Assembly (NCBI GenBank): GCA_030710605.1
Contig: CP092864.1
Location: 139,423,418 to 139,487,417 of the forward strand
DNA from: Cordylochernes scorpioides
Lineage: Eukaryota
Length of the DNA: 64,000 nucleotides
Direction: 5' to 3'
The notes under the pieces are model-generated. The model was not told the DNA's origin. It did not search any database and saw only the letters and a program-made list of their open reading frames with translations. Numbering within the stretch: the first letter of the stretch is position 1; each line of letters starts with the position of its first letter. The translations under genes were made by a program, and so were the position numbers. This document shows positions 23,252-64,000 of this stretch, in pieces.

Positions 23252-23550
23252 TAGCTTTTCTTGATTAATCAAGAATGGGTATTTGGCCAATTCTGGAATA
23301 ATTAAAAATCAACGAGAATAGTTGATATTTATTCCGATAGATGGCGCAAGCCATCAGCAACTTTCAAGTTGCTTGATAAGAAGAAGCCTTTTTCTTAATT
23401 TATGCACCTTATCCCAGTACAATATTACATTTGTACTATTTTTTCACATTGTGTAGCGTTCTCACGCAATTCTGGCCTTAACTACCCGTTTCATGATTTT
23501 TCAGGATGCCTTAAGGACCAATTTTTTTTGGTCGTTGAGGTACAGCTTGC

Positions 23551-23592
23551 ACCACGCTGATGAGGGCCAACAGCCCGAAACGCGTCCGTGGT
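23551..23592 (+). ncRNA. Minimal type I hammerhead ribozyme motif (second direct copy)
   Basis: Identical sequence to the 23210-23251 copy; predicted cleavage after 23586, 341 nt downstream of the first site. Confidence 0.8.
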
Positions 23593-23920
23593 TAGCTTTT
23601 CTTGATTAATCAAGAATGGGTATTTGGCCAATTCTGGAATAATTAAAAATCAACGAGAATAGTTGATATTTATTCCGATAGATGGCGCAAGCCATCAGCA
23701 ACTTTCAGTTGCTTGATAAGAAGAAGCCTTTTTCTTAATTTATGCACCTTATCCCAGTACAATATTACATTTGTACTATTTTTTACAAATAACATGATGA
23801 AACCAAACAAAAATTTGATATTTAGAGATCAGAGTGTGAATTAGAAAACAAAGGTAACATTAATAAAAAAAAATTAGGCAATTGCATGTCTGTCATTATT
23901 GAGAAGGGTAAATCACTTGC

Positions 23921-24611: not shown

Positions 24612-24930
24612 CAGTACTCCATGAGAGGATACTCGCGCTAGAGGACACCTCTCTATAAAGGACAATTTTCATTTGCAAAATCCCAATTTTTACTATTTAG
24701 CAACAATTCAGTAAGAGGACACCTCTCCCTAAAGGACAATTTTCATTTGCAAAATCCCAATTTTTACTATTTAGCAACAATTCAGTAAGAGGACACCTCT
24801 CCCTAAAGGACAATTTTCATTTGCAAAATCCCAATTTTTACTATTTAGCAACTCTCCAGTAAGAGGACACCTCTCCCTAAAGGACACTTTTGTTCTACAA
24901 TTAGGTGTCCTTTACAGGGAGGTTCTACTG
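24612..24930 (+). mobile_element. MITE family A copy with 3x internal 62-bp duplication (MVP intron 10)
   Basis: ggacaattttcatttgcaaaatcccaatttttactatttagcaacaattcagtaagaggacacctctccctaaa x3, then the normal 3' TIR. Confidence 0.75.
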
Positions 24931-26545: not shown

Positions 26546-27651
26546 AGGTATCAAAGCTAATGGCGACTAGTTTATTTATTTATGCGGTATAATCTTGGCA
26601 AGCTTTCGGACTAGGACATCCTTCAACAGGTTGTTACTGAGTAGCCTGTTGAAGGACGTCATAGTCCAAAAGCTGGCAAAGATTATAACACATAAATAAA
26701 TAAACTCGTCGCCAATAGATTTGATACCTTCTTCGAAATTATGTCTGGCGATTCCTTCTTTTTGAATATATATATATATATATATACTAGACGGGTGACC
26801 CGGGCTTGGCCCCGGGATTGACACTTGTGCATATCTACCCGAGTGATATATATTTAGATAAGATCTTTTTTTAATAATTGTTTGTATTATCTATTTGTTT
26901 GCATCAGCATAATTTAATCTAATATTTGATAGAGGGCGCTGTTCCTAAGCTAAGTAGAATAATTTGAATATATAGTTTTAATAATTGATTTATATATTTT
27001 TTAAAATAGCCTATCGTCTTCCCCGTATTTTTTTACCTATGTATGGAAATTTTGGTTTGAATTAGTGAACTACTGCGAATTTTTATACCGGACATACAAA
27101 CATACAAACAAACAAACATTCATTTATATATATATAGATATTACCTCAAGAGAATGACTGGAGATCGTGGAAATTGACGATAATTGATAATAGATCTTCA
27201 TATCGAAGACACAATTTTGATATTAACATTATAAAATGGAAAATAATCAATAATTATATATATAGATATAACAGTAATGAATTGGTTCCAAGTGGTGTTG
27301 CTAGTGTATTCTACAATTAAGGTATATATGAGGAACAAAGAGAGAGGATATCTGTAAAAATAAAGGCTGTCTCTCCCATCAAAAGAGACGCTGAAACTAA
27401 GCGGCATCTATTGACTGTCTCCACAAACTAGCAGACTAATTCAGAGGCACTTAGTTTTAGTGTCTATTTTGATGGGAGAGGAGAGATCTTTATTTTTATA
27501 GATCATTATCTTCCCAAATTTCCATCTCTATATTTTGGCCATAGAATTGGCCTAGCCACTTTGTCAGCTAAACACTTCTTTGGCAGATTGTGGAAGATTT
27601 CATTTGATAGATCTCAAAATTAAAACCCACTATGTGAACTGAAGAGGGGCT

Positions 27652-28230
27652 TCTTCTTTCTTATCTCCACTCAATCACACTAAGGTATCAAGCTTGTCTT
27701 CTTCTTCTTATTTCTTATCTCCACTCAATCACACTAAGGTATCAAGCTTGTCTTCTTCTTCTTCTTTCTTATCTCCACTCAATCACACTAAGGTATCAAG
27801 CTTGTCTTCTTCTTCTTCTTTCTTATCTCCACTCAATCACACTAAGGTATCAAGCTTGTCTTCTTCTTCTTTCTTATCTCCACTCAATCACACTAAGGTA
27901 TCAAGCTTGTCTTCTTCTTCTTCTTTCTTATCTCCACTCAATCACACTAAGGTATCAAGCTTGTCTTCTTCTTCTTCTTTCTTATCTCCACTCAATCACA
28001 CTAAGGTATCAAGCTTGTCTTCTTCTTCTTCTTTCTTATCTCCACTCAATCACACTAAAGTATCAAGCTTGTCTTCTTCTTCTTCTTTCTTATCTCCACT
28101 CAATCACACTAAGGTATCAAGCTTGTCTTCTTCTTCTTCTTTCTTATCTCCACTCAATCACACTAAGGTATCAAGCTTGTCTTCTTCTTCTTTCTTATCT
28201 CCACACAATCACACTAAGGTATCAAGCTTG
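27652..28230 (-). repeat. ~60-bp tandem repeat x about 9.5 derived from a LINE 3' end (CTT-rich tail)
   Basis: (cttcttcttctttcttatctccactcaatcacactaaggtatcaagcttgt)n, contiguous with LINE 3' sequence at 28230-28440. Confidence 0.8.
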
Positions 28231-28621
28231 TAAAGCTTGAGATTTTTGATGGTGTCTGCCGGGGAAGAGTAGAGCTCATCAATGGATGAGTCAATACAGT
28301 CAATAATATGTCTTGGGGTTGCAGGCTGAGAATTGCACTTAGTACATAGTGGGAAAACCTTGCAAAGTCGGCCTGCCACTGAGTAGTGCTCCCAGTCTTA
28401 ATGACAAAGGCAGACACATTTTACTTTACCCAATCATGAAGAGGGTCTTTAACCCAAAACCATATTCCCTAGGTGGGCACTTTACAATTTGCCAAAGCTG
28501 CGGCTTTGTTTCCGACCAGAGTCTGCTAGTTTGCAGAGATGGCGCTTAGTTTTAGGGTTTATTTTCAACAAGATAATTTTATAGATCCCCAGGGCAAGAA
28601 ATATAAGGAGAGTGGAGTGAC

Positions 28622-28833: not shown

Positions 28834-29199
28834 CTGCCATCACACCACCAGTGTGTAAACTATTTAAAACATGTGATATTTTTTCTCATTCATTACTTTT
28901 GTCTGAAGATGATAACAAGCTGTTACCGAAATGGATTTGGTCTCATTACCTTGTGCTTATAATCTACTAGCCGAATGACCCGGGCAACGCCCGGGGTTTG
29001 CCCGATTAAATGCTTTTATTAAAATACTATTTGTTACAATTATAAATTGGCGCCGTGGATGTCATTCTTGTATAATATATAAATGAGTTTTAAAAATTGT
29101 AAAAAAAAAAAAAAAAAATGCATCGGCCGGGAATCGAACCCAGGGCGCCCGCCACTATAATATATAAATGAGTTTTAAAAATTGTAAAAAAAAAAAGAA

Positions 29200-29261
29200 T
29201 GCATCGGCCGGGAATCGAACCCGGGGCGCCCGCGTGGCAGGCGAGCATTCTACCACTGAAC
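29200..29261 (-). pseudogene. tRNA-Gly-like copy (5' acceptor strand missing) plus a shorter fragment at 29120-29159; same conserved flanking repeat (28960-29120)
   Basis: tgcatcggccgggaatcgaacccggggcgcccgcgtggcaggcgagcattctaccactgaac, preceded by a poly-A/T run and ctagccgaatgacccgggcaacgcccgggg... Confidence 0.5.
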
Positions 29262-30291
29262 AAAAAGCAAACGGTGACAGAATTAAGAACGCATGACGCT
29301 AATAACTGCATATATTAATAATCCAAATTGTGCCTTATCATTCCACACAGCTAGTTACAAGTAATCTTAAATCTGCTATAGCTATACATTTCTGCAACCC
29401 TAAACCATACTGTATTGGCTCATCTATTGATAAGCTCTACTCATTCCCAGCCGACACCATCCAAAGTCTCAAGCTTTACAGGCTTGATACCCTGATATGA
29501 TTAAGTGGAGATAAGAAACTGTCTGGTGAGAGGACACCTCTCCCTAAAGGACACTTTGTCTCTGCAATTAGATGTTGTCCTTTACAGGAAGGTTCTACTG
29601 TAATAAGGTATTCAGTTTATAACAGACATTTACTGCCTATGTATGGTATACGTACAACTACTGACTCCCTCCCTTGTATAGCCTTTTACATGTATAACAA
29701 AGGACAGAGTACAAACACAACTTATATCTACCATGATTATCATGTGCACGACTCCATATAGGTTATATGCCAGTTACGTTAGAGCGCTGGTTTTATCCAA
29801 CATTTCCCTGAGGACACCTACAGAGAGGTGTAACTTGGACTTTGACCTGGTATTAAATGGCCGCCTCTAACATGAGGAACAGACGCCCTGTGCAGCCGCT
29901 CCTAACATGGAGAACAGATGCTGCTGAATATCCTGTAACCCAAGAATAGGAGCCCTTACAGGGTGCTATCAGTCGGGCCAACTGAAACCTGGTTTTTTAG
30001 CGAGCTTGTTACTTCTCCCCCTCCTCCTTTTTCATCCGGGCTTGGGACCGGCAATAAGTAAAAAAAAAAAAAAGATTATCATTACATAGTACTTAGAGTA
30101 GAATGTAATCAAACCTTGCATGCTCATAGAACTTCATGTGGTTAGCACAGAAAACACATTAGCCTTCTTCTTTCTTATCTCCACTTAACAATCATATTAG
30201 GGCATCAAGCTTGTATATCTTGAGATGGTGTCTGCTGGGGATGAGTAGAGCTCATCAATGGATGAGCCAGGACAGTGACACATTAGTAATA

Positions 30292-36300: not shown

Positions 36301-37384
36301 CTAATTCTTTTTTTGAAGTAAACGAAAAATTGCGCTACAAATAATAAAAATAAAACTACAACCTTTCGCAATGAGTTTCTTTTATTATGATATACGCGAG
36401 CTTTCGGGCTGGAGCCGCCCTTCTATGGGCAATATTTCAGCATACCATGAATACCGGCCACAAATTTAATTTAGATAGTCCAACTTGCCACTATAGTAAC
36501 ATAACCACCAAATCTGAAAGATTAATCCTTGAATTGCTGATTTCCAAACAACACAATAGCATTAATCGTAGAATAGATATCCCAGAACAATTTTGTCATA
36601 TTCCATACCACAAAAATCAGATTTCTCGCTTATCCAATCTATAGTCTAAAACTTAACTTTATTAAAATATTGAAATTTAAGGTTAATTTACTTCCAATTG
36701 TTAAACATAGTAAAATAGTAATAATTTATGTAGATTTAATACTTTTCTTTCTGATAATTTATGTAAAATTTGTAACAAATTAATGCATATAACTGTCTCT
36801 CAAAAATCAAATAGTTCATTTTTGCCTGTAGAAGGGCGGCTCCAGCCCGAAAGTTCGCGTATCTACTTATATAATTGCCTTATTCTGTCTGTGTGAAGTT
36901 CACTGTGTGAAGTATGTGGATATGGATGGAATGGATAAAATAAAAAAAGTGTCAAGGGATGGGAATCGAACCCACGACCTTCCGCTTACCAGGCAGATGC
37001 CATGACCACTAGGCCACATGACCACAATTTATAATTGTAACAAATAGTATTTGAATCAAAACATTCAATCGGGTAAAACACGGGTGTTGCCCGGGTCATT
37101 CGGCTAGTATCATAATAAAAGAAATTCATTGCGAAAGATTCTAGTTTTATTTTTATAATTCTTTTTTGTTTAAGGTGGAAAAATATCGGGCTTCTGAGGC
37201 TAAATTTCTTTTAAAACATTTTTCGGACACAAAAGCTAGGGATTTATGAATTTAAATGCTTTGAAAGAAACTTGAAGCCTGATAATTTCATCTCAATATT
37301 TGATACAAGGCATTATTTTAATGAACTGTAAATTTTTTTTTTTTTGTTCTTTTATTTCAGAGAATAAACAACTTTTTGTATTGT

Positions 37385-37554: not shown

Positions 37555-37925
37555 TATATTTTTAAAAAAAGTGAGTGGAGGGTATTTGTGAGACTTGGTG
37601 AACAAGGTTCAACTGCATTAACTTATCCTTGATGTAACGCATGCTTCATAATTTGGGTATATTCCTATTCACTAAGCTTTGTGCTCAAAGGTGAGTGGGG
37701 GGTGCTCAGCTAACGGAACCAACTCACCTGACTCCAGGCATAGGGCTACAAACATAATATATATGGTGGGTGCTCAGCGTGTTCTTCATGTGTCAATACA
37801 CTCATGGATGAACACATAAGGAAGTTGTACCTTCCTAGCATGTATATCGGGATTCAGACAAAAACACTTTGGCTCTGCAATTAGGTGTCCTTTACAGGTA
37901 GGTTCTACTGTAACAAAATTCCCGT

Positions 37926-40967: not shown

Positions 40968-41539
40968 CTGATACACAACATATACTCCCATTCATCTATT
41001 CACTTCCTTATTTATAATATTGTCATGCATTAAGTCTAAATGAAATATACTCATGGACAAAACTTATGAAAGTTATACCTTTTAGCATGTATATCAGGAA
41101 TTAGACAATAACTCTGAAAGATATTACAGGAACCTTTAGTGAATACACACGAGATAACCGGGGGGGAAGAAGTCTGACCTCACCTCCCTTGACCCTTGGA
41201 ATATTCGACTAAATTCTGGTCTGTTTCCAAGGCGACTAACGTGGCAATGACATCCATTTTCCAATGAAGAGCAAAATGCATGGAGACATCTAAGGTTTTT
41301 CATTGGACATAACAACAACGAGATAACCAAGTGTGAACAAAGTTGTCTCTGTCTCCTTCTAAGAACACTCTTGAAAATTTACTCTCAAAATCACTCTAGA
41401 AATAATCATTTTCAAGGCATTTCCAGAGAAAAATATGCCTATCAAAATATAGTAAAACTTGTCTCTAAAGGACAACACCTAGTTGCAGAGTGTAGTTTAG
41501 ATAGAAGTGTCCAGAGAGTTACAAATTAGTAAATATTTT

Positions 41540-41650: not shown

Positions 41651-42985
41651 ATACATAGTGTGATCAATAATTTCCAGGAATGCTAAATATTTAAAGAAAT
41701 ACAAAAGTATAATAAAGTTTTATTTAAAATTTCTCAAAATAATCACCGTCACTATCTATACACTTGTTCCATCTTTTTTCCAGATATCAAAACACCTCTA
41801 AAAATCCTCATCTTTCAGGCTTTTCAAAATATTCTTCGTATTCTCCTTTATTTCAGGTATTGAGTCAAATCGACATCCTTTTAAGACTTTTTTAATTTTA
41901 GGGTAAAGGAAAAAGTCGTTGGGAGCAAGTCAGGAGAATAGGGTGGCTGGGGTAGTAAAGCAATTCCATGTTTAGCCAAATAGAGTGGTACAGTGACGGC
42001 CGTATGTGGCCGTGCGTTGTCATGATGCAAGAGCCAATTTTTCTGATGCCATTTTTTGGGTCGTTTCTGATACACAGCCTCCCTTAAATGTCGCAATACA
42101 TCAAAATAGTAATGTTGATTAATGATCTGACCCTCGGGCTCGAATTCATAGTGTACCAATCCCTTTACATCAAAGAAAGTGATAAGAAAACACTTAAACT
42201 TCGATTTGATCATCCTTGATTTCTTGAATCTTGGTTCTCCAGGCTCTAGCCACTGGCTTGATTGCCTCTTAGTCTCGGGATCATATCCGTACACCCATGT
42301 TTCATTTCCCGTGATAATATTTTTGAGCCAATGGGGATCAGAATTAAACATTTTGACTATGTTTTTGCATGTTTCTTTGCGATCCTCTTTCTGCTCATTC
42401 GTTAAGAGATGTGGGACAAATTTAGCTGGGGATCGTTTAAGATGCAGATCATTCTTTATGAGGGTTTGGTATGTTCCAAAAGAGATATTCAAGTCTTCTG
42501 ATAGCTCTCTGATATTTATTCTTGGGGTTTCTTTGATGGATAACTTGATTTTGAGTGCATTTTCGGGGTTTCTTATTGATAAAGGTCTGCCAGTATGTAG
42601 ATCATCCTTGACACTTTTTCAACCAGCTTTAAATCGTGCAAACCATTCAAATTTCCTCGATTGTGATAGGGCATCTTCTTTAAAAGTCTGCTTCAACATT
42701 TGAAATGATTCAGAAGCTGTTTTCCCTAATTTAAAGCAAAACTCTATGCAGACTCGCTGTTTTTCAATACAGTCTATACTGAAGTTAGAAAATGTTCTGA
42801 TATACTCGAGATTATAAATTCGAAAAAAAAACATGAGCGCGTGCGTCTGTGTGTTCATTTTTTTTTTCTACGTATTGATAAATGTTTTATCTATAAGGTC
42901 CTCATAAAATTATTTCATTATTTTGAATAGTTTACATGATCCAGTCTCATATTTGGAAATTATTGATCACACGTTGTATATATGG
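41650..42985 (-). mobile_element. Mariner-like element (Tc1/mariner superfamily) with frameshifted transposase; in MVP intron 3
   Basis: ORF 42619..42858(-) matches the mariner N-terminus (...CIEFCFKLGKTASESFQMLKQTFKEDALSQSRKFEWFARFKAG). ORF 41881..42492(-) contains WLLHHDNARPHTA and LLPQPPYSPDL. The C-terminal ...GDYFE lies in another frame. Imperfect TIRs are acatagtgtgatcaataatttcc (41653-41675) and rc of 42956-42978, with TA flanks. Confidence 0.85.
41881..42492 (-). pseudogene. Mariner transposase catalytic-domain fragment (DD34D-type motif HHDNARPH)
   Basis: The 203-aa ORF aligns to the mariner transposase core; the N- and C-terminal parts are in different frames. Confidence 0.8.
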
Positions 42986-45194: not shown

Positions 45195-46180
45195 CGTTCT
45201 GATTTATTGTCTGAATCCCAATATACATGCTAAAAGGTACAATTTCCTTTAGTTTTGTCCAAGCGTGTATCTTTCAGAGTTATTGTCTGAATCCCGATAT
45301 ACATGCTAAAAGGTACAACTTCCTCAAGTGTTGTCCATGAGTATATCTTTCAGAGTTATTGTCTGAATCCCGATATACATGCTAAAAGGTACAACTTCCT
45401 CAAGTGTTGCCCATGAGTGTATCTTTCAGAGTTATTGTCTGCATCCCAATATACATGCTAAAAGGTACAACTTCCTCAAGTGTTGTCCATGAGTGTATCT
45501 TTCAGAGTTATTGTCTGCATCCCAATATACAGGCTAAAAGGTACAACTTCCTCAAGTGTTGTCCATGAGTGTATCTTTCAGAGTTATTGTCTGCATCCCA
45601 ATATACATGCTAAAAGGTACAACTTCCTCAAGTGTTGTCCATGAGTGTATCTTTCAGAGTTATTGTCTGAATCCCGATATACAGGCTAAAAGGTACAACT
45701 TCCTCAAGTGTTGTCCATGAGTGTATCTTTCAGAGTTATTGTCTGAATCCCGATATACATGCTAAAAGGTACATCTTCCTCAAATTGTGTCCAAGAGTGT
45801 ATCTTTCAGAGTTATTGTCTGAATCCCGATATACAGGCTAAAAGGTACATCTTCCTCAAGTTGTGTCCATGAGTGTATCTTTCAGAGTTATTGTCTGAAT
45901 CCCGATATACAGGCTAAAAGGTACATCTTCCTCAAGTTGTGTCCATGAGTGTATCTTTCAGAGTTATTGTCTGAATCCCGATATACAGGCTAAAAGGTAC
46001 ATCTTCCTCAAGTTGTGTCCATGAGTGTATCTTTCAGAGTTATTGTCTGAATCCCGATATACAGGCTAAAAGGTACATCTTCCTCAAGTTGTGTCCATGA
46101 GTGTATCTTTCAGAGTTATTGTCTGAATCCCGATATACAGGCTAAAAGGTACATCTTCCTCAAGTTGTGTCCATGAGTGT
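45195..46180. repeat. 77-bp tandem repeat x about 13, immediately upstream of the MVP 5' end
   Basis: (tattgtctgaatcccgatatacaggctaaaaggtacatcttcctcaagttgtgtccatgagtgtatctttcagagt)n; related single copies at 57120-57230 and 44990-45200. Confidence 0.9.
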
Positions 46181-46485
46181 AACTTGAGCTCTGCTTTAAC
46201 CACCTCCAGAAGAGACCAGGAGTAGCCAATCCCTCACAGGAGATTGTCCTCGACCAAGAATAGATATCTCATTACAGTAAAAGTCTCTCAATTGGCTTTA
46301 AATAGATTCACTGAAATTTATTCCTATGTTTGCTATCATTTAATGGGAACACAACATATATAGTCTTCTCTCTTTATAATAGGTATATTTTATAACAGGC
46401 TTTCGATATAACAGACAAAATCAGGAGTCACCTTAAAATTACATTGAAAATGAACCATACTTTATAAAAGACATACAGTAGAACC

Positions 46486-46965: not shown

Positions 46966-47069
46966 AGAAGTAACCTAAAAATGATTGTTTATTACTCCCT
47001 AGTAAAGCTGGGGACTATAGAATTATGATGTTAATCAAGTTGTTATAATAAAGGAGGCTGTTGTAACAG

Positions 47070-47500
47070 GATTTAATTGTACTTGTGTGTAAAAATAAAT
47101 ATAGATTTCCACTTTTATTGCTAGGGTTTCAATTGTACTTGTGTATAAATATTTACCAGAGTTTCCACTTTTGTTGCTAGGGTTTCATTGTACTTGTGTA
47201 TAAAAATTTTCCAGTTTCTACTCTTGTTGCTAGGGTTTCATTGTACTTGTGTATAAAAATTTACCAGTTTCTACTCTTGTTGCTAGGGTTTCATTGTACT
47301 TGTGTATAAAAATTTTCCAGTTTCTACTCTTGTTGCTAGGGTTTCATTGTACTTGTGTATAAAAATTTACCAGTTCCTACTCTTGTTGCTAGGGTTTCAT
47401 TGTACTTGTGTATAAAAATTTTCCAGTTTCTACTCTTGTTGCTAGGGTTTCATTGTACTTGTGTATAAAAATTTACCAGTTTCTACTCTTGTTGCTAGCA
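47070..47500. repeat. ~55-bp tandem repeat x about 8
   Basis: (tctactcttgttgctagggtttcattgtacttgtgtataaaaatttaccagtt)n. Confidence 0.85.
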
Positions 47501-49707: not shown

Positions 49708-49777
49708 TGCATCGGCCGGGAATCGAACCCGGGCCGCCACGTGGCAGGCAAGCATTCTACCACTGAACCACCGATGG
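49708..49777 (-). pseudogene. tRNA-Gly(GCC)-like sequence followed by a 19-nt oligo-T; probable tRNA pseudogene/SINE head embedded in a conserved ~220-bp repeat
   Basis: rc = cCATCGGTGGTTCAGTGGTAGAATGCTTGCCTGCCACGTGGCGGCCCGGGTTCGATTCCCGGCCGATGCA. Near-identical to canonical tRNA-Gly-GCC, with a compensatory pair in the acceptor stem. G1 is replaced by C and the anticodon stem is weakened. Confidence 0.6.
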
Positions 49778-50299: not shown

Positions 50300-50880
50300 A
50301 ATGGATAAATTTAAGCTATACTCTCACTACAAAGACATTCACATATCTTTCATGATGGAGGGATACCTTTTAGGGGATTTTCCTTTCCCAGTTGTGAGAC
50401 TACTTGCACAAGTTAGAATACTTTCAAGTTTTTTTAGAGAAAACCACACCAAGATGCTCTGCGGTGAGGACCCGATTTGTACCTTCTGTAATTCAAAACT
50501 AAAAAATGAAATCACCCACTTTATTTTTGATTGCTCTGCTCTGAAAGAAGAAAGAAGAACCCTTATGCTCAAAACTGGGCAACTCTGTGCTTCACTCCCA
50601 TCAATAATTGACAATATGACCCAGAATAAGTATATTGCTACGGCGTTTTATGGTTTCCACAAGTCCATATCTCAGAAGAAGGCCAAGTGACACTCACTCC
50701 TCACTTTCTTACTGCTACTCTTTTTGTGTTGTTTTTTTTGCTTCCCTCTTTCTCTTTTTTTTCTTCTGTTTATATTGTTGTTTCCTTTGTTTCACTGCTT
50801 TGTTCTTATGCATACCTCTGGTGAATCCTGTATAGGGTCAGTGACCCTGAATAAAGGCTTTTTGTTGTTGTTGTTATTGC
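50300..50880 (+). mobile_element. LINE 3' end (RT C-terminus plus 3' UTR ending in a TTG repeat); copies inverted at 6545-6870 and 55730-56170
   Basis: ORF 50301..50690 ...CTFCNSKLKNEITHFIFDCSALKEERRTLM...; the 3' UTR ...ggtgaatcctgtatagggtcagtgaccctgaataaaggcttttt(gtt)n is mirrored at 6580-6620 and 55750-55790. Confidence 0.7.
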
Positions 50881-52107: not shown

Positions 52108-53498
52108 TAAGACCAAATCCAAATAAATTATAAGTGTGTGACGTTCTGGTAACAACGCTGTTACTGAAACGTTTAGTTATTTAGATTTGGTCTTATTACT
52201 TAGTAGTTATAAAAGATTGTGCCTTATCAATCTTCTCCAAACTTCTTTGTGTCTTCTATCAATAGGGTCTCCATTAAATTTTCTCCAAGCTTCTTTGTTA
52301 GCCAGAGTCTATTTGATATCTTGAAGATTCTTCCAAAAATTTTCTAATATAAGGTAATAAGACAAAATACAAATAAATAAATAGTGTATGACATTTCATA
52401 CAAAAGTACTGAGTGTTGTAATTCTAATCTATAATTGTGCCTATTCTACCACCCAACTAGATGAAAGAGACCTCCTCCGTACCATCAAAACCCAATGCCT
52501 GCAGGAATGGAAATCTGATGCTGGACATGACTGGTACAGAGCAGGAGGGATAAGCACCGGTTCTGTCCTCCCAAGAGAACAACAGTCTTTGATTTCCAGA
52601 CTTAAGTCTGGTCATCTACGGACAATGACTTTCCAGAATGGTTGCAAGGTTTTCCCACTATGTACTAAGTGCAAATTCTCAGCATGCAACCCCAAGACAT
52701 ATTATTGACTGTATTGACTCATCCATTGATGAGCTCTACTCTTCCCCGGCAGACACCATCACAAGCTCTATAAGCTTGATACCTTAGTGTGATTGAGTGG
52801 AGATAAGAAAGAAGAAGATTGTGTCTTATCATCTCTCTAATATAGAAACACACAAAATAGAGGGAAATTTTTACCTTAATGAAGAGGTGTTTCCCTCTGC
52901 TTACCAAGCCCCTATATAGAGTTACTGATGTTGGTCTTAAATTCCAGGAGTAAGCGGCTATCTTTAGTTGTACTTCACTTCCCTCACACCATACATCCTT
53001 CCTGATTGTTGCCTACTAACGGAGTTTACATGCCATTGGCCAACACCATGTTGCAATACCTGGCAACACCTTCAAATTATGGAGACTTTTTTGTGTGTGT
53101 GACTCATTAAAAAAAGGTTATTGACAAAAAATAGAAAAGGAGATTGCATAAGAACATTAAATCCTATTGTATCTTACTAATATGCATCCAGTAAATTCCA
53201 AGGTGACTGAAGACTTCAATAAATGATGCAATAAAGAGAGACCATTTTTTTACAATGGATTTTAAAAATAAAAGGATTTTATTTGCATATATCTAAAGCA
53301 CAAAGAGATGAACGGTACAATTATTGTTACGTGATTGTATAGTTATGTAAAAAGGATTGAAATATCTATATAAGCCTTGAGAAAGATGAAATAGCAAAAA
53401 AAAAGGTGTAGCAGAAGAATTATACTGCATTTATTATTTATGTGGGTGCTTTCTTATTAAAAAAAAAAGGGTAAATTTAAGAGAAAGAGTAAAATATA

Positions 53499-53773
53499 CC
53501 TATCCCCCGATTTACACGGTACTTTTTTTACACGTTTTCGTTTTACACGGTTTTCCAAATAAGTTTTTTTTTTAATCGCACTATACTAAATGCTACTGTG
53601 ATTGAACACATGCGCTGTGTACACATCTCACGAGGAATCCCGGAGCTTATGTGCTGACTACATATTTTAACTTGTAAATGCATTTTATTTTTATTTCTGT
53701 GTACACCTAACGCCCCGATTTACACGTTTTCTCAGGAACGTATCTACCGTGTAAATCGGGGGATAGGTGTATA
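53499..53773 (+). mobile_element. MITE family C copy
   Basis: Same TIRs; internal sequence collinear with the 26233 copy. Confidence 0.75.
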
Positions 53774-54892
53774 TATTTTAAAAAGAGGATTCTGAAGAGA
53801 GAAAAGAGCCCGGTGACTTACTTGTGGGTTGTCACTGACAAAGGTGAGATAAAGTGGAAGATATTTATCGGAGAGTGATAAGTTTCACAATGGCTGGAAA
53901 TAACTGGTTACTTGCCACCCTGCACCAATCTTGCAGCATAAATGGATCCTTGTGTTTTTTATCCTTATCATTATCATGCAACTTCTTTCAATAGAATAGG
54001 CAACAAGACTCAAGTCCTGCAGCCTCAACTAGAATTTCTAAGCAACTAAATACAGTTTAGTTGAAATACCTCTCTGTTAAGGACAACACCTAGCTGTAGG
54101 GCCAAAGTGTCCTTTAGGGAAAGATGTCCTCTTATTTGAGAGTTAGTCTTTTTCTTTCTTATTTTCACTCAATCATATTAGGGTATCAAGCGTGTAGATC
54201 TTAAGACTAGAAAGTTAGTATATAGTAATAATGGTAATTGCCTCTCTCAATCCGATAGTCAACAAATATATAATTGGATGAATGCAATGATATTTGATCA
54301 AGGTCTCCTCTTTGGTTTATATAAATCTCAAACAAAATATATCACTCTCCACCATTTACCTTATAAAATGTCAACTTTAATTCAACTCTTTGCTAAAATC
54401 CAAATCCCAGTCAGCCAGTGTAAAAAGGTCATAATTTCTTGCACACTTGTTGACAGCAAATTCTCCTAGAAAATGTCCACTAACAGTGAATATGTTGCGA
54501 TGCATTAGCCAAATCTATGGCCAAAATATAGATGGAAATTTTGCTGGGAGGTTAATGATCAATAAAAACTTAGGTCACCTACACCATCAAAATAAACGTC
54601 AAACTTTTTTCTTTCAACCATTATTGATCATTAACTTCCCGGCAAAATTTCTAAAGTATTTTTAATGAAATATGATCAATACTTATACTTTTAGGATCAA
54701 CAAGAGATCTATTTGAAGGATGGGTCTTGAAGGATGAAGGGAGAAATTGACCAAAGAAAGGATTGGTTCGATAATATCCAAAAATTTTAATATATTGCCA
54801 CGTGGAAAATTAAGAAAGACAAAATTCAGGATGATACAGCAGTTTATTTTAACTCTTGATTAGAAATACACGTTTTTCCCTGATTTATAATA

Positions 54893-55155: not shown

Positions 55156-56321
55156 TTTTAAAATAAATAAAGCTTCCAGGGCTAAGTTTCTTGTTCAACT
55201 TTTTATTTTCAATTCAGATTTATTAACGTGATACTCCTGTTGAAGGACTGACAAGTCCGAAAGCTTGAAAATAAAAAGTTGAACAAGAAACTTAACCCTG
55301 GAGAAGCTTTATTTATTTTATAAAAATTTATTTTAAGGCAAGAAAAAACTATATGAATGATAAACAAAAGATAAGCAAAGAGGGAAGTTTACAGATTAGA
55401 AAAAATATATAAACATAAAAAAAATGATACTCTGTTAATAAAATGAAAAATACTCTGCTACAATATAAAAAGATGAAGAATTGGATAGAACAAGATGAAA
55501 TGGCATTCCATGAATGTTAATCTGTATTTGGAGATGGTATTCTATGTGATGATGAAAGTAAGCCAATCTTTACATCACCTTTACATTTCTATCTTATTTA
55601 CCTAACTCTACAGTGACCTGAAATCGAATAAATGAGATTAACTACAGATGAGTGTATCAATGAGCAAAGTATTTAAGTACAATACAAAATTATTAACAAA
55701 TGGTGCTATTAATTACAGTTATCTTCACTACAACAACAAAACAACAAAAAGCCTTTATTTAGGGTCACTGACCCTATACAGGATTCACCAGAGGTATGCA
55801 TAAGAACAAAGCAGTGAGACAAAGGAAACACCAATATAAACAGAAGAAGAAAAAAAGAAAGAGAAAGAGGGAAGCAAGAAAAACAACACAAAAAGAGTAG
55901 CAGTAAGAAAGTGAGGAGTGAGTGTCACTTGGCCTTCTTCTGAGATATGGACTTGTGGAAACCATAAAACGCTGTAGCAATATACTTATTCTGGGTCATA
56001 TTGTCAATTATTGATGGAAGTGAAGCACAGAGTTGCCCAGTTTTGAGCATAAGGGTTCTTCTTTCAGAGCAGAGCAATCAAAAATATAGTGAGTGATTTC
56101 ATTTTTTAGTTTTGAATTACAGAAGGTACAAATCGGGTCCTCACCGCAGAGCATCTTGGTGTGGTTTTCTCTAAAAAAACTTGAAAGTATTCTAACTTGT
56201 GCGAGTAGTTATCTTCACTATAACAATTAGGGGACCAAGATTTCTAATTGTTGTTATGCCCATTGTTAAAACAATTTGGGATTTAAAAACTGGGACCTTA
56301 GAATTATGTCACAGAAGAACC

Positions 56322-56486
56322 TCCAAGAGAGAACACTCCAGCTAGAGGACACCTCTCTACAAAGGACAGTTTTCATTGTCAAAATTACCATTTTTACTAT
56401 TTAACAACTCACCGGTAAGAGGACACCTCTTCATAAAGGACATTTTTGCTCTGAAACTAGGTGTCCTTTACAGAGAGGTTCTACTG
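56322..56486 (+). mobile_element. MITE family A copy
   Basis: cagaagaacctccaagagagaacac...cagagaggttctactg. Confidence 0.7.
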
Positions 56487-56830: not shown

Positions 56831-59254
56831 CCCTTGGTTTTTGAGTAACCACCTATAGCTAAAAAAACTTAAAATCACTTATGAACCGCTTTCTTTTATT
56901 AAGTTAAAACCAAAATTTTACTGACTAAATGGGAAAATAGGATTATTTAGGAGGGCCTCGCTCATCAGTGGAAAACCTTCCAGTGTTTTCAGCAGTTTAA
57001 TCTACACTCATGGACAAAACTTAGGTAGAAAGTCTTTTATGTCGCCAGTCATCTATTTGTTTGAAGGAGCTAGAGACAGTTTTGTTCAAAATTGGTTATC
57101 CCGTCTGTTCGTCTGTCTTCAATAAAGGTCATTATATGTACCAAATATCTTTCAGAATTATTATCTGAATCCCGATATACATGCTAAAAGGTACAACATC
57201 CTTAAATTTTATCCATGAGCCTACCACTTTACAATTGTATTTTGGCAATCTGACAATTCATAGGAATTCTTAATGAAAGTATTTAAAGTATTTATTTGGC
57301 TTTGGAGTTAATAGAAATTTAGATAATTAATTATATATTTTACTATGTTGATCCTGTGAACTTCAACAATGGAAAAAATAATAATTTCTAATTGGCTGGA
57401 GATGAATATTGAACTCTGCCATTTTCGTTTTCCCATCCTAATGCTTGCATCAAGTATTATATGTGAATACATCAATGATCAATAATCTATAATCTGACGA
57501 GTATAAAAAACGTTTGACATCCATTAAAAAATACATTAATTGCTTAGGTAAAATCACTTTTATATATTCATATTCGAGTTTATATTATGATAGTAAATAC
57601 CTAAATGTACCTCAATTAGAGGCTTATTTTTAATTGTAAAATGGAGGGTATTGAAAACTTTTGCTTTGGCAACATTTTTATCAAATTACATCGTATAAAA
57701 TGTAAGCTCCATTTAGGTACGCCTTTTTGGCATTTAAATTGCAAAGAGAGAGAAATTACATTTAAATTATTATATAAGATATTAATAGTTCGAAATGGTT
57801 TTGGTTTCGTTTTATTTCTAAAGTGAATTCGCTATAATATTTTGTTTAAAAACCGACGTTAAAAGACAACTTACCCCTTTAAATCGCAATATGCCGGAGG
57901 ATTATAGTAAAAAAAAAAACAACAAAATTACGCAATATTCTGAAAGTTATTTCAGAGTGACCAAATTTTTAATTGATTTGCAAAAAAAAAAAACAATATA
58001 TTTTTATCCTTCTTACATATAATATACATACCAATAAAAATTACCAAAATACGATCCCCTAACAATTTATATAAAATAAATAAAGTTCAAGATCATTTAT
58101 GGGTACTCCAATTTTAGATAACCCCTATAAAATGAAAGCTCATTGAATATTTAATGGTATTTGATACTGCCTAAGAAAACAGGAGAGAATCCCCCTTTTT
58201 TTTTTTTCCATCACTAGATAATATGCAATGATTTGATTTGGCGCCTTAAAAATCACCCATTTGTTCTAAAATTAGGATTGGGTTCTTATTAAATTATAGT
58301 TCTTTACTTTTATATAAATGAGAGGTGATTTGTGTGTATGTCAAAAATTGAGGTCTATTCAGCACCTATAGTTGATCCCCGAGGAAGACTATTTTTTCTT
58401 TAAAAAAAGAAAAGTTTTCAAGACCAAGATGGTACTTCTAGATGGTAGCCTTCGCCACACTTGTCATTTGCATAGCCTCAGAATGAAGCCAGGTTTGCAG
58501 ATCCAGGGGCAAGTCATTAGAGAAGAACACCTCCCAGAGCAGAGGTTGTGTTGGGGCACGTTTTTGTAACCATACCCCAACAGAAGGCGTATGTATAATC
58601 AAATCAAATGGATACATGGCTTCCCTCCCACATAGACTTACAGACCATTCTTTTTGCCCAGAAACCTAGACAACAGATGACACCAGACTTCCATGCCGAA
58701 AGCTGATGCCTGGTAAAGAAGAAGACATCCAGAGACATCCGAGCTGGAAACTGTTGTTTCATATGTACATATATTCCCCTCACCAAAAATTTAGGTAAAG
58801 GTGACCAGAAAAAAAAAATGGAGAAGGAAGATCTCTAAAAGACTGAACCGAGAAAGGAAAGCGTTATATTACAGTGCAAGTGAAAAGGGGCCTGTGTCAA
58901 TTTTAGCTAAGACGGAGGGGGGGAGCGATATATATATATCATCCCGAGAAAAAGGGAGGATGATATTTCAATCCATGTGGATGGGAGGGCTGGCGTCTGA
59001 AATTTTACACTATCGCCGTAGATGTTACTCTCTTTAGATTTTTGTTTTGGTAATACTATATGTTCTATTTTGATGGAAGAGGCCTGGAGTCTGAAATCTT
59101 ACACTAGTGCCATGTTGTTTCTCTTTTGAGATTTTTTTTTGTTTTGGTAATACGATATGTTCTTTTTTTGGTGAGGCCTGGGGCGTCTATGAAATTGATA
59201 CTGGAGCCGTTGGCCATTTGGATTGGTTTTCTTTCGGCGAATGAAAATGGAGAG

Positions 59255-59390
59255 AGGGAGGATATAAAGGAAGGTTCTTTGCCAAAAGGCAGGATTCGAT
59301 CGGAGTCGCTCAGTGAGAAGGACGATTTTTAGACGGGCCTGAGACGTAGAGGAGACCAGACCTTGCCGCCGCTTTCGAGAGAAGGTAAGC
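59255..59390 (+). promoter_or_regulatory. Promoter-like module A: TATA (gatataaagg, 59261-59270) plus putative non-coding first exon ending at donor GAAG|GTAAGC (59385)
   Basis: About 95 bp downstream of the TATA: agacgggcctgagacgtagaggagaccagaccttgccgccgctttcgagagaag|gtaagc. Paralogous to module B. Confidence 0.45.
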
Positions 59391-61519
59391 CCCTTGCCAT
59401 TATGGCTTAGCCCCCTTTTTTTTTTTTTTTTTTTTTTTTCGAACAGAAGCTAATCTATTTAGATTCTGAATGGGCCCTAAAGGGCTTTAAGTGACTTAAA
59501 AAGGAGTGTTAGGGTTCGTATATTTTGTCCCGCTAGAATAGATGGAGATCTAGGTTTCCCCCCCTTTTTGTGTAGTAGCCAACCTAGATTTCGCATGGGC
59601 CTTAAAGGGCTATAAAGTAACTTCAGGTCACCTCTATCTAAATTTTACTATGTAAATAGCATATCTCGTCAGTATAGACATGTTCCCAAATTTTAAGATA
59701 TTTTAAATAAATGTCTAGAGAAATTTTCTTGTTTCCTCTGTTACCTATTTCATACATAATTTGCCTTATGGTGCTATTCCCACTGTTTAAATGAAATGTT
59801 GTATGTTTCTTACCTATTTGAAGGGAATGTTACTAATAATCAAGTCTCCCATAAATTACCGGCCACATACATTGCCGCGAGTGTCTGTGTTTCATTGTTT
59901 TATAGATTGCCCAATTTAATAACGATTTCATGGGTTGTCTGATAATATTGTATAATAGTGTCGCGGCTGTTTCCATCTTTAGACCATTGTTCTGACAATA
60001 TTATATGCTCGATCCTTGCTTTAGCTCAACTCTTAATCAATTACAGAGTTTTTCCCCCCTTTTCTTTTTTATTTATTTTATTTATCCTGTTTGCATAAAT
60101 TGCATTACATGTGATGATGTAAAGACATATGCCGATAGTGCATCACTGACAGCTGTGCTGCTATTATACAACATTAAGGTCTTGCTGTGGGTTATATACA
60201 TGGGGTTGTTGGCCTAAATTGCTATATATATATATACTTAAGTAAGGAAACTTTTAATAAGATACATCGTGTATCCTCCCTTTTCAACTATCCAAACCGG
60301 GAACCCATCAATGTCGCCCGCCGCGGGGCTCGAATTTAGTATATGTTTCTTCCCCTATACTTTAGAAATATATACCTAATGAAAAGCCATACTATTTTTA
60401 AGTATTGGTGAAGTAGTCCACGCATCCTGAGATTAACAGTCTATTATAAATCGTGAATTTTAATTTATGCTTTCCGTTTCACTGGCATTTTATCAGGCAA
60501 TGAAAGTTATGTTGAGGCGGTGTATACCGCATCTCTCGCCGCTGTCTTTTACGATTCACATTGTTTGTGGCAAAAACCTTAATATTATCATTGATTTCTG
60601 ATATCAAAGTAAAACGTCTATGGGGATGAGTATCTTGTATTCTGGTCTTCTCGAGCTTTCGAGCTTGTCCGCCCTTCTACAGGAGAAACATATACAATAT
60701 ATCAAGAAAATATAACGTCGCCTGATGCTAAAACTATTATGATTCTATGTACATATATATATATACATTAGGAAGTTTTGCATATTATTTGTTTTCTTAA
60801 GACATATTTTTTTGATTAAGGTATTACACATATTCTACTATTGTTTGCTATATTCTATGAATTATCTTATAGGTTAGAAATTCTATTATTTAAGTAGTTT
60901 TATAATAGTTATTGGCTATGTTGGGTCAGTTTTTCCATTAAACAAAACCCAACAAAGATGTAAACATTCATTTACATCATATAAACATATATATACGCAG
61001 TGTCTCGCCGAAGTGTTTGTTGCCTAGGTGGAAAACTCCCAACGATGGCCGACGATGCTCTAAAGGCCCCCTTCCCTGACGCAGGGCCTCCCTTGGAAGG
61101 ATGTGCAAAGGGCAGACACGTGAAGACACGGGTGACATCCAGAGACATCCGTGCTGAGAACTGCTGTACCATATGTACATATATTGCTGTACCATATGTA
61201 CATATATTCCCCTCATTTCCTTTTGGTAGTAGGTGACCTAAGGAAAACAATGTGTCATTTAAACATATAAATTAATAATTTTATATACTCGGGATATATA
61301 TATATATTTTTAATATAATCAAAATATATATATATATTAATTAATTCCCAAAGGAATTAATTTTAGGGGTTAATTTGTTTTATCCAATATACGATTTCTT
61401 TCTCGCGCGGCAACACGGGAAATTGGGGGCGTGGTCATGGGGGGACGTGCGTGTTTTCTTCCGACGAATGGAGATGCCCATTGATCACGTGGGTGTTTGC
61501 CCTCGGCGAATCAAAATGC

Positions 61520-61705
61520 CAGCCAATAAAGGCTTTGGCATGATCAACGAATGGAAATGAAGAAAGACTAGTATAAAAGGGCCCGTTTTTGACTAAAAAA
61601 GGATCAGACAGAGAGAGCCGCTCAGTGACAGTAGAGAATTTATCCAGACGAGCCTGGGACGTAGAGGAGACAGTCCGTGCCGCCGCTTTCCGAAAGAAGG
61701 TAAGC
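61520..61705 (+). promoter_or_regulatory. Promoter-like module B: CArG/CCAAT-like CCAATAAAGG (61524-61533), E-box CACGTG, TATA (gtataaaagg, 61571-61580), putative non-coding first exon ending at donor AAGG|TAAGC (61700)
   Basis: agacgagcctgggacgtagaggagacagtccgtgccgccgctttccgaaagaag|gtaagc. Part of a ~1.2-kb duplicated segment (58600-59890 vs 61000-62170). Confidence 0.45.
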
Positions 61706-64000
61706 ACGCCATTATGGCCCAACTCCCTTTCATAGTTTTCAATTAGAAACAGTTCTATTTAGAATCAGAATGGGCCCTAAAAGGGCTTTAAATACAAGAT
61801 AGAATGTTTGTATTTTCGTGTCTTGTCCCGTTAGAAGGGATGGAGATCTATGTTCTCCAATCTATAGAGAGGAAATAGTATCCTTAAGTCACCCTACCTA
61901 TATTATTATGTAAATAGTATGTCCCGCCAGCATAAAAAAAAAAAATGCCCCCAAAAATATGAATAGTTCAAATAAATATCCGATACATATCGTATGAGAG
62001 TAATTTCTTGTTCTCTCTCCTACATACTCCATTCTTTTGCCCTATGATGTTACTCCCACTGTATAAATGAAATGTTGTATGTTTCTTATCTATTTGAAGG
62101 GAATGTTGCTAATAATTAGGTCTCCATAAATTGCCGGTCATATACATCGTTGCAAGTGTCTGTGTTTCAGTGTGCCTGCATCATGTCTACTTTATATTGT
62201 TCATTGATTTAAAATTAATAAGATACATGTTGTCTTAAAACTCATTAGGTTGTTCTCTTTACGGCTTTATTGAAGACCCAGGTTTTAGATATATTATGAT
62301 TGTTAATGTCAATGGCATAAGTCTATAGTTTGCTTGTCCTTTATTATTAGATTTTTGGTGTAATCTTCATAAATAGAGTTCTTCCCATATATCCAGATGG
62401 TAACATACTTATCGCATCTTGTTGAATCTTTACTATAAAGGATTAGGATTAATGTATACCTGCATGTGCGGCCAGATTTTCCACCAATGGAGTCTGAATC
62501 AGGTACTTCATGATATCTACTTTGAAATATTGTTTTCCGCCCACTATACTTCAATAGAAATATTAGTTTGGTCTTGTATATTCAGGATTTTAGTCTCTAA
62601 TAGTAACATGTTCATCTTTTCTGAGATCTTCCAAAGTCGTTGGATGATCTCAAAGGACGTGACACAAAGAGATGGGTGCGTCACGGACCAAAGTCCGTTG
62701 GACTGTAGGGGCGGTAAAATGGATGGCGGTTCCATTCCAGCGTCTATCTTTATGATGGGAGAGCCGTTCACTATTAAGGGTATAGTTTGCTTGTCCTTAA
62801 ATCTTATTTGTTAGTCTTCAGATATAACCTTCACAAGTAGGGTTCCTTCTACATATATCCAGATAGCAAAATAATTCAAATATCTTAACCACTTGTTATA
62901 TGCTAAGTACAGACTATTTACATATTTTTAAACTAAGGTTAAATTATTATATAATAAAAATATAACTTATGAAATTTGAATTAGCCATGGAGCAGAGTTA
63001 TGGCTATTGTATCTTTTTATTCTGATTTCTGACTATTGCGCTTATGTCAGGTATGTTTCTATAATATATCCCTATACCATATTTTCTAATTCTTCGGGCT
63101 ATTGTTAAGCAGTTAGGAGGGTAAGGTGTGATGCAAATAGATCTATATGTATGACTACTGTCTGTGTCATTTGGGTTATAAAAAGAAAGGGGGATGCCTT
63201 AATATGAATCTATCCGCAATTGACCTGTAGAAATTATAGAGATCTATTGCTATAATCTATTGCTATTGCTATGTCTTGATGACAGAGCCGACCATTATTT
63301 CACAAATCATTTTAACGTAGTGAAGGAACAGGAATAATTCGATATTTCCCCCCTTTCTTCCTAATTACACGTGAGCCCTAATTTAATGGGAGTGTCTTTA
63401 CACATCTGTCCTAAACTTCCCACACTATATCCCTTGTGTATAAATCTATTTTTTTAATTCATCTGTAGAAATATAGAGATCTGTTGCTATAATTTCCTCT
63501 ATGAAGTAGCTACCAGCGTCTTCAGTAGGTGGCTAAATCGTTAGAAGGCGATTCTTTTAGAGGAATGGTTGAAACAACGAGGGAGGCAAAGGAAGGGTCC
63601 GCCATTTTTCTTTCATGGAAGAAGAAGCAGGAGAGAGTATGGATGTAAGTTGAAACCCCTGAGACGTTTGGACCCCACATTCCTGAGACATCGTTAGTTC
63701 GCGCGCGAAGGATCCATCAACGGGACTGCCTGACGCTGGGCCCCTTTCCCCCCCCCCCGCTATTAGTGGAATTCCACCCACGCCTGGCGTGGTTGGAAGC
63801 CTCACTTGGAACTGCATTCCTCTAAATCCTTCTGTACTTTGTATATTATCTGATATTCCATTCTTCCAATTATAGTTCTTATGCTCAAGTGCTACATTGC
63901 TTATCTCTATATCAAACGCCTTGCCTATTGTGGTAGAGACCCAGTTACCAAAATGTTACATTTGCAGTTTTTTTTTATAAATAAATTTTTTGTATTAAGT

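Follow-up and report, generated by a model that had tools for sequence, protein, structure and literature searches.

The window analysed, a stretch of 64,000 nucleotides from the genome of an animal, carries close to its 3' end two old, diverged copies of a segment, each about 1.1 kb long and non-coding and each looking like the start of a gene. The duplication is real and clearly beyond chance. The main paralogous block (59238-59898 in copy A, 61548-62173 in copy B) aligns over 691 columns with 67.9% identity (E 3e-79). Upstream of it, an island in which 58724-58775 matches 61134-61185 extends to 58820 and 61252, respectively (Table 1). We favour the reading that the two segments are paralogous plus-strand promoters of RNA polymerase II, each followed by a non-coding first exon, and judge from the arrangement of the signals described below that it has about an even chance of being correct. 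Such a combination of promoter and leader exon is plausible and ordinary.

Two diverged copies of about 1.2 kb had originally been predicted at 58600-59890 and 61000-62170. Both exist but proved slightly narrower, because the outer parts, 58600-58720 and 61000-61130, share no detectable homology. The left boundary is not sharply defined, while the right limit of the homology in copy A lies at 59898. The copies lie at a distance of 2.3 kb and have diverged by 30%. The segments 58820-59237 and 61252-61547, which link the upstream island to the TATA region, cannot be aligned; here copy A contains a 97-bp tandem repeat and copy B an (AT)n tract. The spacer between the copies holds a pair of 28-nt inverted repeats (59943-59970 and 60149-60176), a CpG-rich stretch (60200-60700) and a 55-bp fragment that recurs at 36371-36425. 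Comparison of the spacer following copy A with the DNA after copy B, and of the DNA preceding copy A with the spacer, gave scores no better than shuffled sequences. A third copy of the segment was not found within the 64 kb. Local alignments at 63.45-64.0 kb did not rise above shuffles, and the TATA region of copy A resembles 63579-63599 only weakly, a match that we did not accept, as 16 of 300 shuffles scored equally well or better. The gene for the major vault protein (MVP) is located at 19-45 kb, and the putative plus-strand promoters point away from it. The best database match of an MVP exon showed 81% identity, and all matches were short fragments.

Table 1 Features of the two duplicated segments and the DNA between them (positions within the window).
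Feature	Position	Strand	Remarks
Copy A upstream conserved island	58724..58820	+	88% identity to 61134-61185; holds left inverted-repeat arm
Copy A-specific 97-bp tandem repeat, 1.9 copies	58985..59168	.	TRF; inside unalignable distal promoter region
Copy A proximal promoter	59214..59268	+	CCATTTGG with inverted CCAAT, CGAATGAAAATG motif (59238-59249), TATAAA
Copy A putative non-coding leader exon	59291..59384	+	5' end inferred; ends AAG before GT 59385
Copy A putative intron, proximal part	59385..59757	+	67% identity to copy B
Copy A island iv, best-conserved block of unit	59758..59898	+	86% identity overall, 38/40 in 59778-59838
Spacer between copies	59899..61133	.	no counterpart after copy B
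Copy B upstream conserved island	61134..61252	+	holds 23-bp tandem duplication (61162-61208) and left inverted-repeat arm
Copy B proximal promoter	61465..61577	+	three CGAAT(G/C)RARATG motifs, E-box, CCAAT / CC(A/T)6GG, TATAAA
Copy B putative non-coding leader exon	61606..61699	+	5' end inferred; ends AAG before GT 61700
Copy B putative intron and island iv	61700..62173	+	island iv = 62034-62173

As predicted, each copy contains a TATA box. The sequence TATAAA is present at 59263-59268 and 61572-61577, aligned within 1 nt, and about 40-45 bp further upstream there is an ATTGG (inverted CCAAT, 59222-59226) in copy A and a CCAAT (61523-61527) in copy B. Both core promoter elements are therefore kept between the copies, ahead of putative start sites, while the region from the TATA box to the start shows just 62% identity. 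Motifs of the type CGAAT(G/C)RARATG occur in copy B at 61465, 61507 and 61548, i.e. with a spacing of about 42 bp, and the four occurrences of CGAAT[GC]RARATG in the window, a motif defined post hoc, are all found in the 110 bp or so that precede each of these TATA boxes. Note that single motifs taken alone are not beyond chance: the window contains 97 TATAAA on the plus strand, 69 CCAAT, 10 CACGTG and, per strand, five CC(A/T)6GG. Weight rests instead on the TATA box, CCAAT/ATTGG, the ATG-free leader and the donor recurring in the same order and with the same spacing in both copies amid decayed surroundings. The CArG-like box CCAATAAAGG (CC(A/T)6GG, 61523-61532) and the E-box CACGTG (61486-61491) that had been pointed out for copy B are indeed present, but they are confined to this copy and occur at chance-level frequency. 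Copy A carries CCATTTGG with four A/T bases instead of six, and a CArG box is thus not a conserved element of these promoters.

The two modules also stand out by their base composition. Their observed/expected (o/e) ratio for CpG is about 1.0-1.2 compared with a window median of 0.37. In copy A, positions 59200-59399 have a GC content of 0.52 and a CpG o/e of 0.97; in copy B, the 300 bp from 61401 to 61700 likewise have a GC content of 0.52 and, with an o/e of 1.09, contain 21 CpG, which is the maximum for the window. Both modules hence qualify as CpG-island-like (GC of at least about 0.5 and CpG o/e of at least 0.6 over at least 200 bp).

Transcription of copy A would start at the CA at 59290-59291, 28 nt past the TATA box, or alternatively at an Inr-like TCAGT (59310-59314); the equivalent positions in copy B are the CA at 61605-61606, 34 nt past the TATA box, and TCAGT at 61622-61626. 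The resulting putative leaders of about 94 nt are devoid of ATG over their whole length in both copies and share 76% identity overall and 80-88% in the 3' half. Since two 1-nt indels inside the conserved leader break any reading frame, a coding function of the leader is ruled out. The claim that a conserved GC-rich stretch ends in a strong GTAAGC donor was borne out: the stretch covers about 59303-59384 and 61615-61699 and closes in AAG/GTAAGC, with the GT at 59385 and 61700. The donor AAGGTAAGC agrees with the consensus in eight of nine positions in both copies, and this 9-mer is found at only these two sites in the window. Plus-strand sites reaching at least 8/9 of the donor consensus number 16 in 64 kb, and the donors of the MVP gene in this genome look like those described here. 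In both copies, a leader with neither start codon nor reading frame is thus joined to a consensus 5' splice site.

Downstream of the donor, the putative intron of copy A contains the palindrome GCCATTATGGC (59396-59406), a T24 run (59416-59439), the motif GGGCCCTAAAGGGC, duplicated at 59585-59615, and AATAAA at 59706-59711. In copy B, GCCATTATGGC is located at 61708-61718 and AATAAA at 61971-61976. A GCCC-UAAA-GGGC hairpin motif also follows the donor. AG-free, pyrimidine-rich runs of 103 nt in copy A (59719-59822) and 99 nt in copy B (61999-62098) are, at about 100 nt before the first AG, both among the 24 longest of 3,658 AG gaps. Candidate 3' splice sites are the AG at 59822-59823 and TTTTATAG ending at 59905, just past island iv, in copy A, and the AG at 62098-62099 and TTTCAG ending at 62170 in copy B. 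The strongest conservation between the copies is found neither in the promoter nor in the exon but in the 140 bp of island iv, 375-515 nt past the donor, and the heterogeneity of identity along the alignment is significant (permutation p = 3.5e-4), with the flanking and distal promoter DNA decayed beyond alignment. For island iv, neither a stable fold nor an Rfam match nor a conserved reading frame was detected. A minus-strand frame that is open in both copies was dismissed, as every difference is non-synonymous. When metagenome contigs were scanned for exact DNA matches, a 24-mer from island iv found none, and a 20-mer from the leader hit one GC-rich bacterial contig, which we ascribe to chance.

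Acceptor-like sites are present at 59822, 59905, 62098, 62170 and 62628, and a recognisable or conserved coding exon was not found in 59.9-64 kb. Searches of all open frames of 40 or more amino acids in 58.4-64 kb against Pfam gave no match, and the only exon-like open reading frame (62629-62779, within ORF 62419-62811) had no homologues among 1.84 billion representatives. Duplicated second exons of 151 nt (62171-62321 and 62629-62779) were considered and rejected because the two sequences lack similarity. The likeness to actin or other cytoskeletal genes suggested originally found no support in the window: the 1.8 kb remaining after copy B show no sign of an actin or any other coding exon, Pfam reveals none in 58.4-64 kb, there is no other sign of actin, and the CArG-like box belongs to copy B only. 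Rfam searches at the gathering threshold and at a relaxed E<=5 returned nothing credible, no match having an E value below 0.4. Folding energies of eight segments gave z scores of -1.4 to +1.9 relative to shuffled sequences, those for exon, donor and island iv segments ranging from -0.1 to +1.9.

According to our preferred reading, each segment would be the 5' end of a polymerase II transcription unit, with a TATA-type core promoter and a CCAAT (NF-Y-type) box some 70-80 bp upstream of the start, embedded in a short unmethylated CpG-rich patch and followed by a leader exon, non-coding and about 94 nt long, that closes in a consensus 5' splice site. The pair would have originated by an old local duplication of some 1.1-1.2 kb that took in the promoter, the first exon and about 0.5 kb of the first intron, and the 1.2-kb spacer would probably stem from later insertions. 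The copies would likely act as two alternative promoters and first exons, although copy A, the upstream one, may be no more than a relic. Each leader could use an acceptor that closes its own unit (AG 59822 or 59905 in copy A, AG 62098 or 62170 in copy B) or join an exon common to both copies past position 64000. The product may be either an mRNA for a protein, with its coding exons outside the window, or a non-coding RNA that is spliced. That transcription starts here, that the leaders are spliced to a target and that function underlies the conservation is what we infer from these signals. If active, the modules would represent the beginning of an unannotated gene, or of a spliced RNA that is non-coding, oriented divergently to the MVP gene, and would provide a clean case of alternative first exons arising through duplication of a promoter-exon-intron block, which would be of value for annotation and for the study of promoter evolution without being surprising. 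The idea of alternative or tandem-duplicated promoters with 5'-UTR exons thus stands in part: the order of TATA box, ATG-free leader and donor, the CpG o/e of about 1 and the CCAAT/ATTGG boxes speak for it, while the strongest conservation resides outside the exon and an inverted repeat brackets the core. Only this unexplained 140-bp block, with its identity of 86-95%, and the inverted repeat that both copies have retained go beyond the ordinary, and one or the other could reflect a regulatory element or a mobile origin.

It is also conceivable, if rather unlikely, that both segments are non-functional intergenic DNA, i.e. an old local segmental duplication with common short motifs, no regulated transcription and islands representing gene-conversion tracts or chance. 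TATAAA, CCAAT and the like are frequent in a window with 36% GC, the DNA that separates the MVP gene from the modules is rich in fragments of transposable elements (TEs) and minisatellites, and small local duplications are common just downstream of copy B (62318/62775 and 63203/63439). The missing downstream coding exon or homologue in the Pfam (58.4-64 kb) and ORF searches and the best-conserved block without recognisable function fit such an origin as well, and gene conversion could mimic constraint when two sequences alone are compared. It fits less well, however, with a complete and ordered set of signals in register in both copies next to DNA that cannot be aligned, and with consensus donors that are rare and yet occur 94 nt past the predicted start in each copy. 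The absence of ATG from both leaders and the CpG o/e of about 1 against a CpG-depleted background, with copy B as the top CpG patch, argue in the same direction.

The inverted repeat hints at a repeat origin. In copy A, its arms (58786-58810 and 59622-59646, the left one extending weakly from 58745) match in 22 of 25 positions; in copy B, they are gapped and located at about 61200-61244 and 61882-61925, and none of 500 shuffles reached either score. The segments might accordingly represent a mobile or repeat-family element with its own promoter, be it a non-autonomous, DNA-transposon-like cassette with inverted repeats or the LTR pair of a very old, gutted retrotransposon, the donor being incidental or the element's own. 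Within each copy the arms appear to co-vary, copy B opens with TG, both units close in ...TTTCA near the limit of homology, each includes a TATA box and AATAAA in the manner of an LTR, and the neighbourhood is TE-rich. We nevertheless consider a mobile element improbable. The arms do not form the ends of the repeated unit, as homology continues for about 60 bp past the left and about 210-250 bp past the right arm and the best-conserved block lies outside them. The left boundary is indistinct, there is no further copy in the 64 kb, and Pfam revealed no remnant of gag/pol or a transposase in the 1.2-kb interior and its flanks. Copy A starts with AG, the flanks differ, target-site duplications are missing, there is no primer-binding site, specifically none of the TGG type, after 59898, and the uniform neutral decay expected of an LTR pair is rejected (p = 3.5e-4). 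We attach still less credence to a formerly mobile promoter-plus-splice-donor cassette, in which the inverted repeats would bracket a TATA/CCAAT promoter, ATG-free leader and donor, and the 140-bp block (59758-59898 and 62034-62173) would be a functional part; if true, it could drive chimeric transcripts into DNA downstream of its insertion site. Tandem genes for a spliced-leader RNA donating its 5' exon, or for another small structured RNA, are hardly credible. The conserved module of exon and GT donor in tandem and the GCCATTATGGC palindrome and hairpin motif past the donor would suit them. Known spliced leaders, however, measure 16-50 nt and the leader here about 75-94 nt, a clear Sm site is missing, the promoter is of the TATA/CCAAT and not the snRNA type, Rfam offers no match at either threshold, fold energies are no better than shuffled, and there are only two copies at considerable distance and divergence.

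LTRs of retrotransposons resemble our segments as direct repeats of about 1.1 kb with a TATA box, AATAAA and an internal segment between them, but the interior here spans just 1.2 kb, conservation is mosaic, and target-site duplication, primer-binding site, polypurine tract at a sharp border and gag/pol remnants are lacking. MITEs and other non-autonomous DNA transposons share inverted repeats of about 25-65 bp around 0.65-0.8 kb, as in both copies, and differ in that homology here passes the arms on both sides, with neither a clear target-site duplication nor a further copy in 64 kb. Repeats of spliced-leader RNA genes have in common with the modules a repeated unit with a conserved exon and a GT donor and deviate in length, promoter type, Sm site, stable structure and Rfam assignment. 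CpG-island-like TATA/CCAAT promoters of polymerase II likewise exhibit, against a background poor in CpG, 200-300 bp with a GC content of about 0.5 and a CpG o/e of about 1, together with a TATA box and CCAAT/ATTGG at the usual NF-Y distance, although the CpG patches are short in our case. In the account of Drosophila Act5C given in PMC9437273 (citing Bond-Matthews and Davidson 1988), separate promoters drive untranslated alternative first exons, and the same applies to exons 1A and 1B of vertebrate pmp22 (PMC2714311). As in these genes, two tandem promoters on the same strand are each followed by a short non-coding leader and a 5' splice site. In Act5C and pmp22 the coding sequence follows further downstream, while a common acceptor or coding exon is not seen in our window. 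What sets the modules described here apart from both genes is that they are recognisable as paralogues of each other.

The duplication is real, as the original prediction of two diverged copies had it: 59238-59898 (copy A) aligns with 61548-62173 (copy B) at 67.9% identity over 691 columns (E 3e-79), and an upstream island (58724-58775 versus 61134-61185) is 88% identical, with a weak continuation to 58820/61252. The outer limits first proposed, 58600 and 61000, overshoot by about 120 bp. From the upstream island to the TATA region the copies are unalignable, copy A carrying a 97-bp tandem repeat in this stretch and copy B a 23-bp tandem duplication together with an (AT)n tract. No further copies of the unit were found elsewhere in the 64 kb; similarity at 63.5-63.9 kb that had suggested a third copy was rejected as non-significant. 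A simple tandem duplication of the unit plus the 1.2-kb spacer that follows copy A can be ruled out, since no counterpart of this spacer was found after copy B. The spacer contains an inverted repeat resembling that of a MITE, along with a fragment recurring at 36.4 kb, which is consistent with later insertions. Two small direct duplications just downstream of copy B (62318-62410 versus 62775-62876, 72%; 63203-63256 versus 63439-63493, 80-90%) indicate a neighbourhood prone to short-range duplication.

The predicted TATA boxes are present in both copies, with TATAAA at 59263 (A) and 61572 (B) aligned within 1 nt. ATTGG (59222-59226) in copy A and CCAAT (61523-61527) in copy B lie 40-45 bp upstream, and a CA dinucleotide follows the TATA box, at 28 nt in A and at 34 nt in B. 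Some 20 nt beyond the CA, both copies conserve CGCTCAGTGA with its Inr-like TCAGT. CGAAT[GC]RARATG, a motif defined post hoc after its occurrences had been seen, is found once in A, three times in B (~42-bp spacing) and nowhere else in the window. CpG o/e is ~1.0 at 59200-59399 and 1.1-1.7 at 61300-61700, with 61401-61700 in copy B ranking first in CpG count within the 64 kb. Further patches of high CpG content (o/e 1.1-1.8) in this CpG-depleted window lie at 7501-7900, 29001-29300, 53501-53800 and 60200-60700; the one at 7501-7900 has a donor-like AGGTAAG at 7577 and may be another gene start. Copy B does have the CArG-like CCAATAAAGG and E-box (CACGTG) described for it, but they carry little weight as evidence because they occur in that copy only and are frequent in the window (five CArG-like matches per strand, ten of CACGTG). 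Nothing at the locus points to actin, to which the modules had been likened.

In each copy the leader, a putative non-coding first exon, terminates in the expected strong donor, AAG/GTAAGC, a 9-mer unique to these two sites in the window; only 16 plus-strand sites there match the donor consensus at eight or more of nine positions. The donors of the major vault protein gene (MVP) resemble it. ATG is absent from both copies between either candidate start and the donor (~94 or ~75 nt), and two 1-nt indels between A and B in the conserved 3' half of the leader exclude a protein-coding reading.

Coordinates and properties of the duplicated unit and the neighbouring gene (identities are for copy A versus copy B)
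Feature	Coordinates	Strand	Observation
Inverted repeat, copy A	58786-58810 / 59622-59646		22/25 match; weak extension to 58745 / 59690
Inverted repeat, copy B	~61200-61244 / 61882-61925		with gap
TATA to start			identity 62%
Leader	59291-59384 (A); 61606-61699 (B)		identity 76%; 3' half 80-88%
First 26 nt of putative intron	59385-59410		identity 83%
Mid putative intron			identity 67%
Last 141 bp of unit	59758-59898		identity 86%; best-conserved block
MVP gene	19123-44902	minus	at least 13 coding exons mapped; span ~26 kb

Identity is uneven along the unit (mean 72.8% over 599 ungapped columns; best 80-column window 74/80, permutation p = 3.5e-4), and the terminal block peaks at 38/40 within 59778-59838. 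Neither coding potential (both strands checked) nor a stable fold nor an RNA family match was found for this block. In both copies it is preceded by ~100 nt of pyrimidine-rich sequence devoid of AG, which ranks in the top 24 of 3,658 AG gaps by length; the first AG past this run falls inside the block (59822 in A, 62098 in B), and the copy B end of the block reads TTTCAG/, at 62170. Two sequences leave room for four readings of the block: the terminal part of intron 1 including the acceptor, a non-coding exon 2, a regulatory element within the intron, or a tract left by gene conversion.

The window is eukaryotic and rich in repeats (GC ~36%, median CpG o/e 0.37). The MVP coding exons run from 44861 down to ~19123, with an ATG at ~44864 and a second, in-frame ATG upstream at ~44902; the region upstream has no TATA box and a CCAAT box at ~45025. 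Since MVP lies on the minus strand and is separated from the duplicated modules by 14 kb of DNA with a 76-bp minisatellite, retroelement tails and tRNA-like SINE pieces, the modules are intergenic, and their proposed plus-strand transcription would be divergent from MVP. The 76-bp minisatellite (45197-46185; 13 copies, 96% matches) begins ~330 bp upstream of the MVP start codon and belongs to a dispersed repeat family, as monomer-like copies at 57146-57219, 41050-41125 and 37801-37864 reveal. An MVP intron harbours a mariner-type transposase remnant (41884-42492, minus strand; Pfam PF01359, E 7e-16).

Further large minisatellites occupy 8908-10397 (46 bp), 12291-12791 (54 bp), 22987-23784 (341 bp), 27650-28231 (54 bp) and 47068-47498 (53 bp), and the 54-bp arrays give spurious long ORFs in several frames. 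A 74-104 bp repeat family (AGAGGACACCTCTC...AAAGGACA) forms short tandem arrays at 21-222, 18376-18670, 24640-24891 and 56332-56447. Three tRNA-like sequences with an Rfam tRNA match (29208-29261, 36950-37022, 49708-49777; only the last called by ARAGORN, as Gly-GCC) border on repeats and poly-A/T, and most likely represent SINEs derived from tRNA. By eye, ORFs at 2614-2937 (minus), 50301-50690 (plus), 52388-52708 (plus) and 56000-56300 resemble Cys/His-rich C-terminal tails of non-LTR retrotransposon ORF2, none with a Pfam match; the pieces at 50.3 kb and 56.1 kb come from one element and are inverted relative to each other.

Pfam searches with all open frames of 40 aa or more between 58.4 and 64 kb gave no match. 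An exon-like, CpG-rich plus-strand stretch at 62629-62779 is flanked by an acceptor-like TTTTCTGAG and a donor-like AGG/GTATAG and has in-frame ATGs at 62648 and 62723 (MISKDV...MDGGSIPASIFMMGEPFTIK); the opposite strand is open too, and neither a homologue among 1.84 billion representative proteins nor a Pfam match was found. Features of a GC-rich (0.53-0.56), CpG-rich patch at 63540-63830 are CCGCCATTTT, which is YY1-like, a short ATGGAAGAAGAAGCAGGAGAGAGTATGGAT/GTAAGT, and a minus-strand open frame of 132 codons (63560-63955). The similarity of this patch to the copy A TATA region is weak and non-significant; it may represent a fragment of a repeat or else a further promoter or exon.

Alternative or tandem promoters with first exons make the most parsimonious reading: we see about an even chance that the copies are two paralogous candidate Pol II promoter and non-coding first-exon modules. 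The lack of a target exon and the repeat-rich setting speak for inert duplicated intergenic DNA with motifs arisen by chance, which we regard as rather unlikely. In both copies, an inverted repeat encloses the leader, together with the TATA box before it and some 240 nt at the start of the putative intron, and its score was reached by none of 500 shuffles in either copy. Adjoining the common GGTGACC core, TAAGGA is found in each arm of B and (A/T)GAA in each arm of A; the arms therefore seem to have evolved in step, a hint that the unit began as a mobile cassette. However, a repeat or mobile element, be it an inverted-repeat cassette or an old LTR pair, is improbable: A-B homology extends beyond both arms, TE hallmarks and an evident target-site duplication are absent, and the 64 kb yielded only the two copies. 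A small-RNA or spliced-leader gene is scarcely credible, as the features expected of one were looked for and not found.

The promoter, leader and donor part of the original interpretation stays plausible, while its CArG/E-box and actin part does not. On sequence grounds, the duplicated module is plausibly a real feature of an ordinary kind and of low general interest; its only noteworthy points are the puzzling 140-bp block of high conservation and the inverted repeat kept by both copies. Known precedents for reading copies A and B as alternative promoters are Act5C, with two leader exons that each have their own promoter (Bond-Matthews and Davidson 1988, as listed in PMC9437273), and pmp22, with its untranslated exons 1A and 1B (PMC2714311).
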